A stretch of DNA of 64,000 nt from the sequence record OP172786. One strand, written 5' to 3'. The notes under the pieces were generated by a model, which was not told the DNA's origin, did no database searches, and was given only the letters and a program-made list of their open reading frames with translations. How positions within the stretch are numbered: the first letter of the stretch is position 1; every line of letters begins with the position of its first letter. Below are positions 23,786-33,025 of the stretch, piece after piece. This DNA is from Escherichia phage ECO07P3. The position numbers were made by a program, and so were the translations under genes.

Positions 23786-24754
23786 TTATTTCAGAAGAGT
23801 AACCTCAGCAATTTCTTCCCAACCGTTTTTGTCGGTCATAATAAAGTCAGCAAGATAAAGAGCAGTACGCAGTGAAACATTGCGTAAACGATTAACATTG
23901 ACTTTCATCCATGATAATGCTTTATAAGTTTCTTCATCAGAAAGACCGCGCTTTTGCATCATGTCAGTTGAAAGAATAACATCTTCAACCCTGACCATAA
24001 TTTCTTCATTAGTGTGAACACCCAAATCCAAATAAACTGAGCGGGACACCAATGCTTGTAAGTGTGGGGCAAGTTTAGTACCACGGTCTAATTCGCGGTC
24101 AATGTCAACGTTTGTGATAAAAACAATCGTTCCTTTAAATTCAAACTCACGGTCAATGCCTTTTTCTTCTAAGTAAGAAGATGCAGTGCTCCAGCAGACT
24201 TTACGGGTCTCTCCAGTGTCCAGAGCAGCTTTTAGAAGATTAAGAATGTCCATATCAGAGAAAACATCCACATCATCAATCAAAAGGACAGAATTCTCTT
24301 CACGATTATTCCAAAGCTGCTCATAAAGACCAATACCAGAGATTTTACCATTAATGCTTTTATATTCAATGTATCCAATATCATTTGCTTTATTTAAAGC
24401 TTTATCTAAAGAATACGTTTTACCAATACCTGCTGCGCCAGAGATAATCAATGAACGAATATTTCCGTTAATAATACCGTTCGTCATCATTCCCATAACA
24501 TTAAATCTTTTATTAATGCGGGTTTTCATATCTTCATACGATTCTTTAACTTCTTCAACTTTTACACCATCATATGAAATATCTGATTTGTAAACCCAAA
24601 CACCGCGACGTTTACCGTCAATTTCAACAAAAACTTTACCATCTCCTTGTGCATCTACCGGAGCATTATCTGGGAACCATTCTCCTAAGAGCTCAAAAGT
24701 TCCAGAGATTTCTTTACCAAAGTAGATACCCTTATTGATAGTTACAGTTTTCAT
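23786..24754 (-). CDS. P-loop/AAA-type ATPase
   Basis: Walker A GAAGIGKT and Walker B VLLIDDVD; track start is TTG, ATG at 24754 follows GGAGAATAAA. Confidence 0.6.
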   Translation of the reverse strand: MKTVTINKGIYFGKEISGTFELLGEWFPDNAPVDAQGDGKVFVEIDGKRRGVWVYKSDISYDGVKVEEVKESYEDMKTRINKRFNVMGMMTNGIINGNIRSLIISGAAGIGKTYSLDKALNKANDIGYIEYKSINGKISGIGLYEQLWNNREENSVLLIDDVDVFSDMDILNLLKAALDTGETRKVCWSTASSYLEEKGIDREFEFKGTIVFITNVDIDRELDRGTKLAPHLQALVSRSVYLDLGVHTNEEIMVRVEDVILSTDMMQKRGLSDEETYKALSWMKVNVNRLRNVSLRTALYLADFIMTDKNGWEEIAEVTLLK

Positions 24755-24788
24755 TTTATTCTCCAAATCCGTATCAGTTGATAGTTGT

Positions 24789-24879: not shown

Positions 24880-25365
24880 TTATTCCATTTCTACTATATG
24901 CATGTTCTTTTTGCTATCAAAATATATGTTTTTAACTATTAACTCAGAATTAATTGGCAGTAAAAACTCTCTTTCATAATCTACCATACAAAGATTATCA
25001 TAAAGCTTGTTAAGCTTATCATCGTCAGTTTGGCCAGATTCTTCAATTGCGATTAAATTTTCTAAAATGTCAATCATAGCAGTCGAATAGTCGAAAACGT
25101 TTGCATTTTTTAACACTACTAAAACATTAGTCATATAGCGTTCTGCCGCAAACGTTTCAGCTATATGAGACTCACTGCTAAAGGAAGTTATTCTTTTAAA
25201 TTTGATTCTCCTATTAACTTCAAACTTATAAGATAGCACTTCCTCTATTGTAAGTCCTCTAAAAAGTATGTCTTTAATCTCAAGTTTGTCTTTAATGTAA
25301 TCATTAACACGCTTATGATTAAAATCATTAATTTTGTTGCCAAGGCATTGCATTAAAATATGCAT
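24880..25365 (-). CDS. putative mono-ADP-ribosyltransferase (R / S-x-S / E-x-E motif order); function inferred
   Basis: 161-aa ORF with strong RBS GAGGAGAA; motifs LFRG (R36), ITSFSSES (S61-x-S63) and YEREFLLP (E131-x-E133) in the order and approximate spacing of ModA/ModB-type enzymes. Confidence 0.4.
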   Translation of the reverse strand: MHILMQCLGNKINDFNHKRVNDYIKDKLEIKDILFRGLTIEEVLSYKFEVNRRIKFKRITSFSSESHIAETFAAERYMTNVLVVLKNANVFDYSTAMIDILENLIAIEESGQTDDDKLNKLYDNLCMVDYEREFLLPINSELIVKNIYFDSKKNMHIVEME

Positions 25366-25491: not shown

Positions 25492-26505
25492 TCATTTATA
25501 ATAACTTCGGTGGTTTTCAAGATAAACCCTCTCAAGGAAGTCATCCCAGAAACTCATGTCTACTTTTTGCTGCATACCGTTCTTAGAAGCTTCAATGGAT
25601 GCTGCTTCTACTTGATCGACCACATCTTCCAAAAACTCTTGAACAGTTTTAAATGGATGCTTACCCAACTTCACGTCGAGAATAAATGAAGCATCTTGGA
25701 GTGGATAAACCAAGTCACCAGTTTTGTAAATTTCCAATAGTTGGAGTCCACCACGACAAGCATGACTCAAAGCTTTCCAGTCAATGCCCTCATTCGCTTC
25801 AGCTTTACGGGCGCGTTCACCGTATTCGGCATCAAGTTTATTCAGAGATTGCTTAAGCTCAATAAGAGAAAGTGTTGTCTGATATTTACGACCCAACACA
25901 GTGTAAAACGTTTGTGGACCTGTTTTCTCATGATTATGGAATACCCATTCGCAGAACTCGTTTTCTGGAAGACGATGCTTAATATCTTCAACTTTAGTGC
26001 GACGCTGCTTAATGGAACCGTCTTCTTGGTAATCAACCCACTGGTCAGGGATTTGATTAACTACTTTCAATACATCACGTAATGCAGCCAAACGAGAACC
26101 CTTGACACCATATTTAGAAGCTTGCTTGCGGACATATCCTAAATAAGATTTCATGTTAGTTGTATAAAAACGAGAACGATTGTCTTGGATAAATTTCCAT
26201 ACATCAGGTAAATCAGATTTAACCACTAGCTCAGGTGGAGTGTGAAGCATATCCAATGCTACAGTTTCACCATCTGCTGCTAATTTAAAGAAATACTTAA
26301 GACTATACAATTCGTGGTCAATATCATCTTTAGTGTTTTTAGATGATGTGTTGTTAGTGTTTTTACTCATATGCTCTTTAACATTTCCAATAAGAATATC
26401 GCGAGCAGGAGGAACAAAGATTTCTTTAAAATCTACATCAGATTCTGGAGTAGAAGTTCCATAAAGATGACTACCAAAATAGCTTTTCATTACTGTTTTC
26501 ATCAT
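25492..26505 (-). CDS. predicted pol-beta-superfamily nucleotidyltransferase
   Basis: N-terminal signature YFGSHLYGTSTPESDVDF (GS-x10-DVD) followed by about 280 aa of unknown function; 4-nt overlap with the upstream membrane-protein gene. Confidence 0.55.
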   Translation of the reverse strand: MMKTVMKSYFGSHLYGTSTPESDVDFKEIFVPPARDILIGNVKEHMSKNTNNTSSKNTKDDIDHELYSLKYFFKLAADGETVALDMLHTPPELVVKSDLPDVWKFIQDNRSRFYTTNMKSYLGYVRKQASKYGVKGSRLAALRDVLKVVNQIPDQWVDYQEDGSIKQRRTKVEDIKHRLPENEFCEWVFHNHEKTGPQTFYTVLGRKYQTTLSLIELKQSLNKLDAEYGERARKAEANEGIDWKALSHACRGGLQLLEIYKTGDLVYPLQDASFILDVKLGKHPFKTVQEFLEDVVDQVEAASIEASKNGMQQKVDMSFWDDFLERVYLENHRSYYK

Positions 26506-26963
26506 TCAGCCTTATATTCAATAACAGGACATACTTTAGCTTTACGCGCTTTTAAAAATTCGACGATAATAGATTTCTTTGGTTGAATAGGAGGTAAACC
26601 TTTATACGCCCTATCAATATTTTCTACATGTAAAGCATAATCCTTTTTCCATTTATAATCTTTATATTTTTCATGCAGTTGTGCAGGAATAACAAATGAA
26701 CCAATAATAAGTAAAACAAGCAAAATAGCAAGTATAAATGCTGATGGAATAAGAGTCCATAAACTACCAAAAATAAGCCATTTCTGCATGATTTCTGCGC
26801 AGATGATAGTTAGACCTGCGAGTATAGTACATCCGAAAAAAGAAACGAAAAATGTAGGAATAACAATAGACCAAAAATACTCGCACAGTGTCTTAGGTCG
26901 TTTCCATTCATCATTAAACATTTTGAATAATTTATAGTGCCAAGAGTTTTCATTAATAATCAT
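26502..26963 (-). CDS. membrane protein (two predicted TM helices)
   Basis: 153-aa ORF with hydrophobic segments IVIPTFFVSFFGCTILAGLTIICA and LIPSAFILAILLVLLIIGSFVI. Confidence 0.55.
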   Translation of the reverse strand: MIINENSWHYKLFKMFNDEWKRPKTLCEYFWSIVIPTFFVSFFGCTILAGLTIICAEIMQKWLIFGSLWTLIPSAFILAILLVLLIIGSFVIPAQLHEKYKDYKWKKDYALHVENIDRAYKGLPPIQPKKSIIVEFLKARKAKVCPVIEYKAE

Positions 26964-26965
26964 AA

Positions 26966-27487
26966 TTATCCTTTCATTGAAGGTGTAACAGTTGTTAAAT
27001 ACTTAATCATAGCTTCAGCTTCTGATTTTGATAATGAAATTTCTCCATTGTTTTGACGAATAGAAATAAAATCCGGATGACGGTCACCACCAGCTTTTAA
27101 AACACACATATAAGTATCAGTTTCATCTTCAATATTTGAAATAATTGAAGCAGTTCCGCATGAATGCGGTTTTTGATAAATCAATACGGCTTTTCTTCCA
27201 CCGTTTGACTGTTCATAAACTTTTAACACATCAAACAAATCACTTCTTTTATCAATAGCTAAGATGTTGTTTTCATCTTCAATGTTAAATCCTTCGGATA
27301 CTTCATAAAGCGTCACCCATAAATCACCTATATCGATAGTAGCATTTTCCTTTCCATGACTTTCAAGAGTATGACAAATTTTCTTGATTTCGTCATAACT
27401 CATTTTAATAATATCATCTCCTTGAATAAGGAAGATGTCATTTTTAAATTCAACACGAATTAAACCACTTTCACTTGAAATAAACAT
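26966..27487 (-). CDS. hypothetical protein, paralog A of a tandem pair
   Basis: 173 aa; shares EGFNIEDENNILAID and C-terminal SEAEAMIKYLTTVTPSM with the next ORF. Confidence 0.55.
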   Translation of the reverse strand: MFISSESGLIRVEFKNDIFLIQGDDIIKMSYDEIKKICHTLESHGKENATIDIGDLWVTLYEVSEGFNIEDENNILAIDKRSDLFDVLKVYEQSNGGRKAVLIYQKPHSCGTASIISNIEDETDTYMCVLKAGGDRHPDFISIRQNNGEISLSKSEAEAMIKYLTTVTPSMKG

Positions 27488-30781: not shown

Positions 30782-30969
30782 AAGGAATCTATATAATCAA
30801 TAAGTTCTTGTTCTTTATCGTCTAAATCTTTACACAGTTCTTCATATTCATCGGTATTAAAAGGACCGCATTCATCGCAAACTTTTTCCAATTCACTATT
30901 TTTATCCATAACTTCGTGAATAAGAGAAAACAGTCTGTCTTTTTGTTCTTTACTCAGACTCATAACCAT
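30778..30969 (-). CDS. hypothetical small acidic protein
   Basis: Track start is TTG; ATG at 30969 follows AGGTG. Confidence 0.45.
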   Translation of the reverse strand: MVMSLSKEQKDRLFSLIHEVMDKNSELEKVCDECGPFNTDEYEELCKDLDDKEQELIDYIDSL

Positions 30970-31172
30970 TGCACCTTTAAGCAATATTCTTCTACGTGTT
31001 GTTTACGTTTATTTTTATCTATAAAAGTATATTCAACATATTCACCGATATACCATTTATCAGTGTTGTGTTGACTTTTTATAGGACATTTGGTTACTCG
31101 AGTTTCGGTCCAGCGTCGAATAATTTCCGCTTTGTTTTTAGGGTCAAACGGATGCGGGTAATGTGCTTTCAT
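30960..31172 (-). CDS. hypothetical protein
   Basis: 70-aa ORF. Confidence 0.5.
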   Translation of the reverse strand: MKAHYPHPFDPKNKAEIIRRWTETRVTKCPIKSQHNTDKWYIGEYVEYTFIDKNKRKQHVEEYCLKVQWL

Positions 31173-31623
31173 AATCCACCACTATTAAATCAATATCAGG
31201 AGTAAACATGTCGATTAATTTAGAAACCTTATCCCAATCACCGCCAGCAATACCACAACCTATGCGTGGAATGTAAATTACTGGTTTAAACAAAAGGGTT
31301 TCTGCTTGTAGATTTAATTCTATCATGCAGTTTACTAAAGCACCATAATCAAGATTAGGACCCGGTTCGTATTGCGTATACAGGTTATAGCATATACCAA
31401 ATCCTGTAGGATTATGTTTAAAAACAATAGACATATCGCCTAATTTATCACGAGAACCGTACTCAGTAGTGGTTTTATCTATTTCTAAAATTTTAGGATA
31501 GGCTCTTGCTAATTGACCCGCTACACCTGAACCCATAGTATGAAAACAGTTGCACCCGTGCGCAATAATATTACCTTGAAGAAATAGGGCGACAATATCG
31601 CCCTTGATATATTTTACAATCAT
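31144..31623 (-). CDS. macro-domain protein (putative ADP-ribose binding/hydrolase)
   Basis: 159-aa ORF with IAHGCNCFHTMGSGVAGQLA and IPRIGCGIAGGDWDKV blocks resembling the two glycine-rich macro-domain motifs. Confidence 0.55.
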   Translation of the reverse strand: MIVKYIKGDIVALFLQGNIIAHGCNCFHTMGSGVAGQLARAYPKILEIDKTTTEYGSRDKLGDMSIVFKHNPTGFGICYNLYTQYEPGPNLDYGALVNCMIELNLQAETLLFKPVIYIPRIGCGIAGGDWDKVSKLIDMFTPDIDLIVVDYESTLPASV

Positions 31624-31961
31624 CTAGTACTCAATCCTCGATTATAAGAATCTACCAAACGGTCAACCATTGAATGACAAGCGGCTTTATCTTTCTCCTC
31701 CGCAACTGAACATTCTAAGGTATTCCACTTTTTAGCATATCGTTTTAATAAAGTATCGTTCTTGTATCTACTTGTTTTATCTCTTTCTCCGTCTTTATAT
31801 GCATATATTAATTTCTGCGCAAATTCAGCTTGGCATGCTTTATTTTTCCCACAATAATCCGCGGCAGTACGGTTTACATACTCTCTAACTTCAGAATATG
31901 ATATATCTGCTAACGCAGAAAATGAAATTAATCCTATACATAAAACCAAAATTTTAGTCAT
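31620..31961 (-). CDS. secreted cysteine-containing protein (signal peptide)
   Basis: 113-aa ORF with N-terminal MTKILVLCIGLISFSALA and four cysteines. Confidence 0.5.
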   Translation of the reverse strand: MTKILVLCIGLISFSALADISYSEVREYVNRTAADYCGKNKACQAEFAQKLIYAYKDGERDKTSRYKNDTLLKRYAKKWNTLECSVAEEKDKAACHSMVDRLVDSYNRGLSTR

Positions 31962-32995: not shown

Positions 32996-33025
32996 ATTAT
33001 ACCACAGTCAAGAGGAAAAGTAAAC
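32996..33025 (-). promoter_or_regulatory. T4-type early promoter (GTTTAC-N18-TATAAT) upstream of regB
   Basis: Minus strand GTTTAC TTTTCCTCTTGACTGTGG TATAAT. Confidence 0.55.

Follow-up and report, generated by a model that had tools for sequence, protein, structure and literature searches.

The minus-strand open reading frame at positions 31144..31623 of the Escherichia phage ECO07P3 DNA analysed here (a stretch of 64,000 nucleotides from record OP172786, hereafter the window) is a real gene and not a chance ORF, and its product is a macrodomain of the ALC1/TARG1-like class, stand-alone and made up of one domain. Judged by sequence and gene order it is the orthologue of T4 tk.4, recently renamed adfM; fold, class, residue pattern and orthology are established in this analysis. 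We consider it rather probable, taking our comparisons together with published genetics, that the function of the product is to remove DarT2-added ADP-ribose from phage DNA by Gln-type hydrolysis. The gene and its role were already known from the literature and from GenBank annotation; what is added here is that the two AdfM families differ as Gln and Lys types, together with an account of an allelic cassette.

Identity, fold and class of Tk.4

The 3 kb surrounding the gene are 98.2% identical to Escherichia phage UFV-AREG1 and match 824 phage records, mostly Tequatrovirus; the source phage is T4-like, a Tequatrovirus. On the minus strand the local order is regB, vs.1, vs, tk.4, tk.3, tk.2, tk.1, tk, identical to that of T4 and T2, so that the ORF can be named as gene tk.4. 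The slot between vs/vs.1 and tk.3/tk is the one that tk.4 holds in Tevenvirinae, with synteny to regB, vs.1 and tk in T4-like viral loci. A full-length BLASTP comparison with T4 Tk.4 (NP_049723) gave 58% identity over 155 aa, ungapped (E 1e-70), and a profile search matched phrog_335 (E 1.6e-71). Homologues number 795 in a large protein database, and tblastn matches to tk.4 were found in 2777 phage records. The CDS begins with ATG and specifies 159 aa and a stop codon (N-terminus of the translation MIVKYIKGD); since M1 hardly varies across the family alignment, the start codon is right. Two glycine-rich blocks, on which an earlier reading made from the sequence alone had based its assignment to the macro domains, are indeed present in the translation, HGCNCFHTMGSGVAGQLA at residues 22-39 and IGCGIAGGDWDKV at residues 121-133.

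Profile, predicted structure and fold search all fully bear out that assignment. The Pfam Macro profile (PF01661) scores 33.1 bits against a gathering score of 22 (E 5.8e-8) over profile positions 2-117 of 118, and an AlphaFold2 model built from 42 homologues (pLDDT 94.1, pTM 0.88) displays the three-layer alpha/beta/alpha arrangement of the macro fold. The leading Foldseek matches in the PDB were TARG1 (top), BT1257, Poa1p, DarG and SCO6735, and the Tk.4 family profile searched against the PDB retrieved BT1257 (7e-19), TARG1 (3.9e-17), SCO6735 (6.8e-16), Poa1p (1.8e-14) and DarG (4e-11). These five proteins, rather than the MacroD, PARG or macroH2A types, are the nearest neighbors in structure and sequence. 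Tk.4 has both Gly-rich loops and a putative adenine-contacting residue, D9 (D or N in the family), and ADP-ribose binding is predicted.

The active site and its relatives

Alignments of 42 and of 121 homologues agree on the invariant residues G8, H22, G23, N25, C26, G33, A35, D49, G62, N80, Y82, Q84, G88, P119, G122, G124 and W130, and all of these (17/17) are common to T4 Tk.4 and the allele in the window. Within loop 1 (residues 22-35, HGCNCFHTMGSGVA; 31519..31560, minus strand), H22, G23, N25, C26, G33 and A35 are invariant in 119-121 of the 121 homologues. N25 is the active-site Asn of almost all enzymatically active macrodomains; it aligns with N23 of PhiKZ AdfM, where the N23A mutant has reduced activity, and corresponds by motif pattern to Asn27 of SCO6735 (G-C-N-C-F here, V-x-N-x-L there). 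The N80-L-Y-T-Q84 motif (31372..31386, minus strand) places Q84 at the position of the catalytic Lys, K84 in TARG1 and K80 in DarG. N80, Y82 and Q84 are invariant in 121/121 homologues and in 79/79 aligned sequences of a bacterial set, and together with D49 they are again invariant in the 78 bacterial relatives of that set, the 79th sequence being Tk.4 from the window and all four residues lying outside the pattern used for the search.

Three methods agree on the position of Q84, namely MAFFT, hhalign (98.5% probability, with NLYTQ on NFPTK) and a profile-to-PDB alignment. The residue aligns to DarG K80 (FPTKKHW) and to the Lys of PhiKZ gp104 (FPTKDNW), and the profile-to-PDB alignment sets the Gln of NLYTQ on the Q of BT1257 NMIGQ. 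Its equivalence to SCO6735 Gln85 is drawn from the BT1257, TARG1 and DarG alignments combined with a published structure-based alignment (PMC9411070), the direct residue alignment to SCO6735 being confined to loop 2. This second loop, the phosphate-binding Gly-rich one (residues 119-130, PRIGCGIAGGDW; 31234..31269, minus strand), is near-identical to SCO6735 PRIGCGLAGGTW. The second catalytic residue of TARG1, D125, is A126 in Tk.4, and no Lys is invariant in the 121-homologue alignment of the family. With Q84 and A126 in place of Lys and Asp, Tk.4 is neither a DarG-type nor a TARG1-type enzyme. Its residue pattern, in which Gln replaces the TARG1/DarG Lys alongside the loop-1 Asn and both Q84 and N25 are invariant, fits the Gln-type (SCO6735/BT1257-like) branch of macrodomains.

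SCO6735 of Streptomyces coelicolor (PDB 5E3B) has Gln85 in place of K84/K80 and is inactive as Q85A and nearly so as N27S. In ssDNA it efficiently strips thymidine of the ADP-ribose that DarT has added, and cells exposed to DarT toxicity are rescued by it (PMC9411070). Its activity with Gln85 proves that Gln-type chemistry is possible; a backbone-positioned water has been proposed as the catalyst, with Asn27 locking the catalytic Gln (PMC9411070). SCO6735 is a cellular and Tk.4 a phage gene product, Val25 there is G23 here, and the SCO6735 mobile loop, reportedly five residues longer than that of DarG/TARG1, has basic residues (PMC9411070), whereas in the profile-to-PDB alignment no extended basic mobile loop was found after the Gln of Tk.4, where the loop has TARG1 length. 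BT1257 (PDB 2AFC/2FG1) has the same Gln (NMIGQ), but a 6-residue insertion follows it there, in contrast to the short, TARG1-length loop of Tk.4. Human TARG1/OARD1 (PDB 4J5R), the top Foldseek match, aligns over the full length of both proteins, with residue numbers that nearly coincide, and also hydrolyses thymidine-ADP-ribose, but does so with the K84/D125 dyad that corresponds to Q84/A126 in Tk.4. Yeast Poa1p (PDB 6LFQ) shares the H-x-C-N-C motif of loop 1 and has good sequence and structure scores, but is larger (about 170-180 aa) and is an ADP-ribose-1''-phosphate phosphatase with a small-molecule substrate.

A different picture emerges for the Lys-type proteins. DarG (PDB 5M3I, 5M31, 7OMU) and PhiKZ gp104 carry FPTK(K/D)xW with the catalytic Lys where the Tk.4 family has NLYTQ. 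DarG has in addition a C-terminal DarT-binding domain and a darT neighbor, and Tk.4 has neither: no darT was found beside tk.4, its neighbors being vs and tk.3, and the DarG equivalog NF048014 gives 27.8 bits against a cut-off of 250, with positions 2-142 of its 338 matched. PhiKZ gp104, also named AdfM, de-ADP-ribosylates DarT2-modified DNA in vitro (Cell Rep 2026, PMC13309987). It matches M. tuberculosis DarG with E 9.4e-25, as opposed to only 4.8e-5 for Tk.4 from the window, and by these alignments gp104 is a true DarG homologue of Lys type. On the same grounds the T4-type and PhiKZ-type AdfM proteins are judged non-orthologous, belonging to different branches of one macrodomain class. Net charge was also tried as an indicator of a DNA substrate and set aside: Tk.4 is acidic (pI 5.0), but PhiKZ AdfM, a proven DNA de-ADP-ribosylase, is equally so (pI 5.05), which leaves any net-charge argument against a DNA substrate without weight.

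Genomic setting of tk.4

The gene lies between vs, the valyl-tRNA synthetase modifier (31620..31961, minus strand; phrog_1256, E 3.9e-39), whose stop codon overlaps the tk.4 start (ATGA), and tk.3 (30960..31172, minus strand; 70 aa, DUF7202, Pfam PF23832, E 2.5e-37), which the 3' end of tk.4 overlaps by 29 nt. From ~22.8 to 33 kb all genes share the minus strand and their stop and start codons overlap, and gene order and overlaps fit one regB-vs.1-vs-tk.4 run. A sigma-70-like site 5' of regB (32996..33024, minus strand; TTTACT-17-TATAAT with an upstream TG) is the best match in the scanned region and a likely candidate promoter for this run, to be read as a consensus match only, the total of sigma-70-like matches in the region being not above shuffles. 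The T4 counterpart of the block is prereplicative on the T4 map, and to regard tk.4 as an early gene, as the sequence-only reading did, is reasonable. In T2 the Tk.4 protein has been detected by proteomics, and the tk.4 mRNA is reported to pair with the host sRNA ArcZ (2026 T2 preprint).

A partner of tk.4 was considered in tk.3, which co-diverges with it here, yet adjoins the macro gene in only 21/43 syntenic T4-like loci; being absent from beside it in about half of them, it was rejected as an obligatory partner. All of tk.3 and most of tk.4 together form a divergent cassette (30960..31590, minus strand), in which sliding identity to T4/T2 falls to 47-73% at the DNA level, whereas the flanks tk, vs, vs.1 and regB are 95-100% identical to T4 and T2. 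Compared with a 170.5 kb T4-like phage (L088), it is the cassette that is similar (about 77-100%, mostly 90-97% DNA identity) and the vs gene that is not (only about 50-60%). About 312 phage records carry the window-type tk.4 allele at >90% identity. The first ~35 nt of tk.4 (31589..31623) are identical to T4 and T2 and mark the upstream junction of the cassette. Within this patch, which is identical between divergent alleles, sits a perfect 19-nt palindrome, AGGGCGATATTGTCGCCCT (31586..31604, minus strand), covering codons 7-13 (KGDIVAL) of tk.4 and giving a terminator-like match. It is exact in the 14 loci compared, whose alleles are 57-100% identical and which include phages with divergent flanks. 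The idea of a structured RNA or terminator was dropped, as the local fold does not stand out from shuffles (z -1.0). The palindrome may serve as a recombination patch or form a regulatory hairpin, and the conserved KGDIVAL codons, taken with the first of these roles, account more simply for its exact conservation. The swap of tk.3-tk.4 is mosaicism of the ordinary phage kind, here affecting a counter-defence locus.

Further along the run of minus-strand genes, an ORF of 161 aa (24880..25365, minus strand) matches phrog_832, 'RNA polymerase ADP-ribosylase' (E 1.4e-23). Residues R36, S61 and E131-x-E133 are retained, in alignment with the R, S-x-S and E-x-E motifs of T4 ModA/ModB; the first ~38 residues of ModA/ModB are missing, and the ORF is, on this sequence evidence, a genuine Mod-family member. 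The sequence-only reading had placed a candidate ADP-ribosyltransferase 6 kb upstream of the macro gene; the ORF is there, about 5.8 kb away, but since both genes are on the minus strand it lies downstream of tk.4 in the direction of transcription. Its insertion site is between nrdC.10 and nrdC.11; T4 has no such ORF there, and T2 does have the ORF. Of the genes flanking this insertion, nrdC.11 (25492..26505, minus strand) has a product that matches the nucleotidyltransferase RlaP, of the 'RNA repair pathway DNA polymerase beta family' (PF10127, E 2e-11), and the product of nrdC.10 (23786..24766, minus strand) has weak AAA/STAND-type NTPase matches, all under the Pfam cut-offs (best AAA_14, 23.0 bits vs 27). 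At 26502..27487 (minus strand), where T4 has the homing endonuclease mobD, the window has two ORFs of 153 aa and 173 aa, counterparts of unnamed hypothetical proteins in UFV-AREG1, the 153-aa one with hydrophobic stretches by eye.

Relatives of Tk.4 are also encoded in 388 bacterial genome stretches. In the best 80 of these 388 loci no DarT2 match was found within +/-5 kb, every tblastn match having E>0.9, in a search whose sensitivity is limited by its single query, P. aeruginosa DarT2. A bacterial partner gene of any kind was likewise sought and discarded, no neighbor being conserved beyond lineage synteny (max 9/80 loci, Ruegeria-type). In these about nine Ruegeria-type loci (L015, L017, L021, L026, L031, L051 and L067 among them) the homologue stands beside rpoC, rpsL, rpsG and fusA, genes named here from reading representative ORF sequences, in a housekeeping neighborhood without an ADP-ribosyltransferase nearby. 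The Pelagimonas copy lies among unrelated housekeeping genes. As the bacterial members are stand-alone and without a DarT neighbor, the ancestral role of the family need not be related to DarT. Unlike the Tk.4 family, PhiKZ AdfM has the look of an orphaned antitoxin, as does the NADAR protein AdfN.

Proposed function, alternatives and significance

The T4 orthologue has been linked to DarTG2 by genetic evidence from a 2025 preprint (HIDEN-SEQ). When T4 transposon mutants were screened on a host carrying DarTG2, tk.4 was the single significant hit, and a clean T4 tk.4 knockout proved sensitised to this system; the gene received its new name adfM (anti-DarT factor Macrodomain) there, with the proposal that its product takes ADP-ribose off DNA (bioRxiv 10.1101/2025.11.20.689424). 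The suggestion of the sequence-only reading that the protein may counter ADP-ribosylation-based host defences such as DarTG thus finds support in published genetics, although for an allele to which the one here is 58% identical, and for the T4 allele the deletion mutant that it proposed to examine on a DarTG host is already published, the outcome being positive. T4 Tk.4 occupies the same slot (regB-vs.1-vs-tk.4-tk.3-...-tk), is of the same length class and shares the family-invariant residues, but the DarTG2 phenotype belongs to the T4 allele, which differs in its tk.4 + tk.3 cassette and in details such as loop 2 (IGAGIGKGNW in T4, IGCGIAGGDW here). Given the allele swap, the DarTG2 function, and with it the same activity, is one that we infer for the allele in the window.

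Under the reading that we favor, Tk.4 would be made before DNA replication from the minus-strand regB-vs.1-vs-tk.4 run and would bind ADP-ribose on thymidine N3 in single-stranded phage DNA, a mark set by host DarT2 at TNTC motifs. It would then hydrolyse the glycosidic bond, by which replicable DNA would be restored and the DarTG2 defence neutralised. Catalysis would proceed without the DarG/TARG1 Lys, through a Gln-type mechanism as in SCO6735: Q84, held by loop-1 N25, would position the distal ribose, and water would do the chemistry. Hydrolysis rather than binding would be the protective step, as we infer. Some observations speak against this reading and should be kept in mind: Tk.4 is without the long basic mobile loop tied by the authors of the SCO6735 work to efficient DNA handling, the bacterial members stand alone without a DarT neighbor, the closest characterized relatives by single-sequence search include Poa1p, and in the view of Iyer et al. 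the main targets of phage macrodomains are small ADP-ribose derivatives.

The main rival takes up these last points. Tk.4 could be a hydrolase of small ADP-ribose derivatives, either Poa1p-like or destroying ADP-ribose-based immune signals or toxic metabolites, with DarTG2 protection as an indirect effect or side activity. We regard this as unlikely, because the only known phenotype of Tk.4 is a specific sensitisation to DarTG2, a DNA-modifying system, because the Gln/Asn pattern of the active site is that of SCO6735, a proven DNA thymidine-ADP-ribose hydrolase, and because the label 'phosphatase' is an old annotation carried over from the A1pp motif and no measurement. The 42% of positions that differ from T4 and the swapped cassette mean that the specificity of the allele here could differ, and it is conceivable, if rather doubtful, that the two tk.4 alleles, exchanged as a cassette across T4-like genera at the 19-nt palindrome, are not interchangeable but tuned to different ADP-ribosylating defences or linkages, so that the substrate range here departs from that of T4 AdfM; candidates would then be different DarT2 variants, the CmdT adenine-N6 mRNA mark or uracil/RNA ADP-ribosylation. 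It is improbable that Tk.4 acts as a non-catalytic binder, a reader or stoichiometric inhibitor that binds DarT2 or shields ADP-ribosylated DNA. Catalytically dead SCO6735, DarG and TARG1 do still inhibit DarT in vitro by 'interaction-inhibition' (PMC9411070), and both the catalytic Lys and Asp of TARG1 are absent (Q84, A126). However, Q84 and N25 do not vary across about 200 family members, the pattern expected for an enzyme, mutation of their equivalents kills catalysis in SCO6735 and reduces PhiKZ AdfM activity, and a single domain of 159 aa has no room in its architecture for the DarT-binding C-terminal domain of DarG, which is missing. The pure 'reader' role that the sequence-only reading had allowed for is accordingly unlikely, N25 and Q84 being needed for catalysis in relatives and invariant in the family.

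A writer/eraser pair, also raised by that reading, would have Tk.4 remove the phage's own marks, set by Alt, ModA, ModB or the Mod-like ORF at 24880..25365. That ORF is a real Mod-family member by its phrog_832 match and catalytic motifs, and ADP-ribosyltransferases and the Tk.4 macrodomain are both general in T4-like phages. The two genes do not co-vary, however: the ORF is sporadic, with only 43 phage records having it at >90% identity and 2777 having the macro gene, T4 has tk.4 without it, T2 has it with a T4-type allele, and most phages with the window-type allele are without it, so that across T4, T2 and the phage here all combinations of its presence or absence with the tk.4 allele occur. 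The genes are moreover 5.8 kb and about 18 genes apart, and the bacterial loci have no partner gene conserved beyond the lineage synteny described above (max 9/80). Alt/Mod-type enzymes make arginine-ADP-ribose, a linkage reversed by ARH-type enzymes and not known as a macrodomain substrate, so the pairing is not supported from this side either. The two genes are independent of each other, and we consider an eraser of the phage's own marks highly improbable.

Removal of DarT2-added ADP-ribose from phage DNA therefore stays our preferred reading, and the practical value of the analysis is a correct annotation, the field's picture being refined and not changed. GenBank labels for tk.4 include 'macro domain-containing protein', 'phosphatase' and 'hypothetical protein', the T4 reference record notes that it 'contains A1pp phosphatase motif', and the 2026 T2 preprint calls it 'putative thymidine kinase'. 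The gene is the adfM anti-DarTG2 candidate and neither a 'phosphatase' nor a 'putative thymidine kinase'. The name AdfM in turn covers two mechanistically different enzymes, T4 Tk.4 of the Gln type, backed by genetic evidence, and PhiKZ gp104 of the Lys type, backed by biochemical evidence. The cassette that carries tk.4 shows a counter-defence locus that is actively exchanged among T4-like phages.
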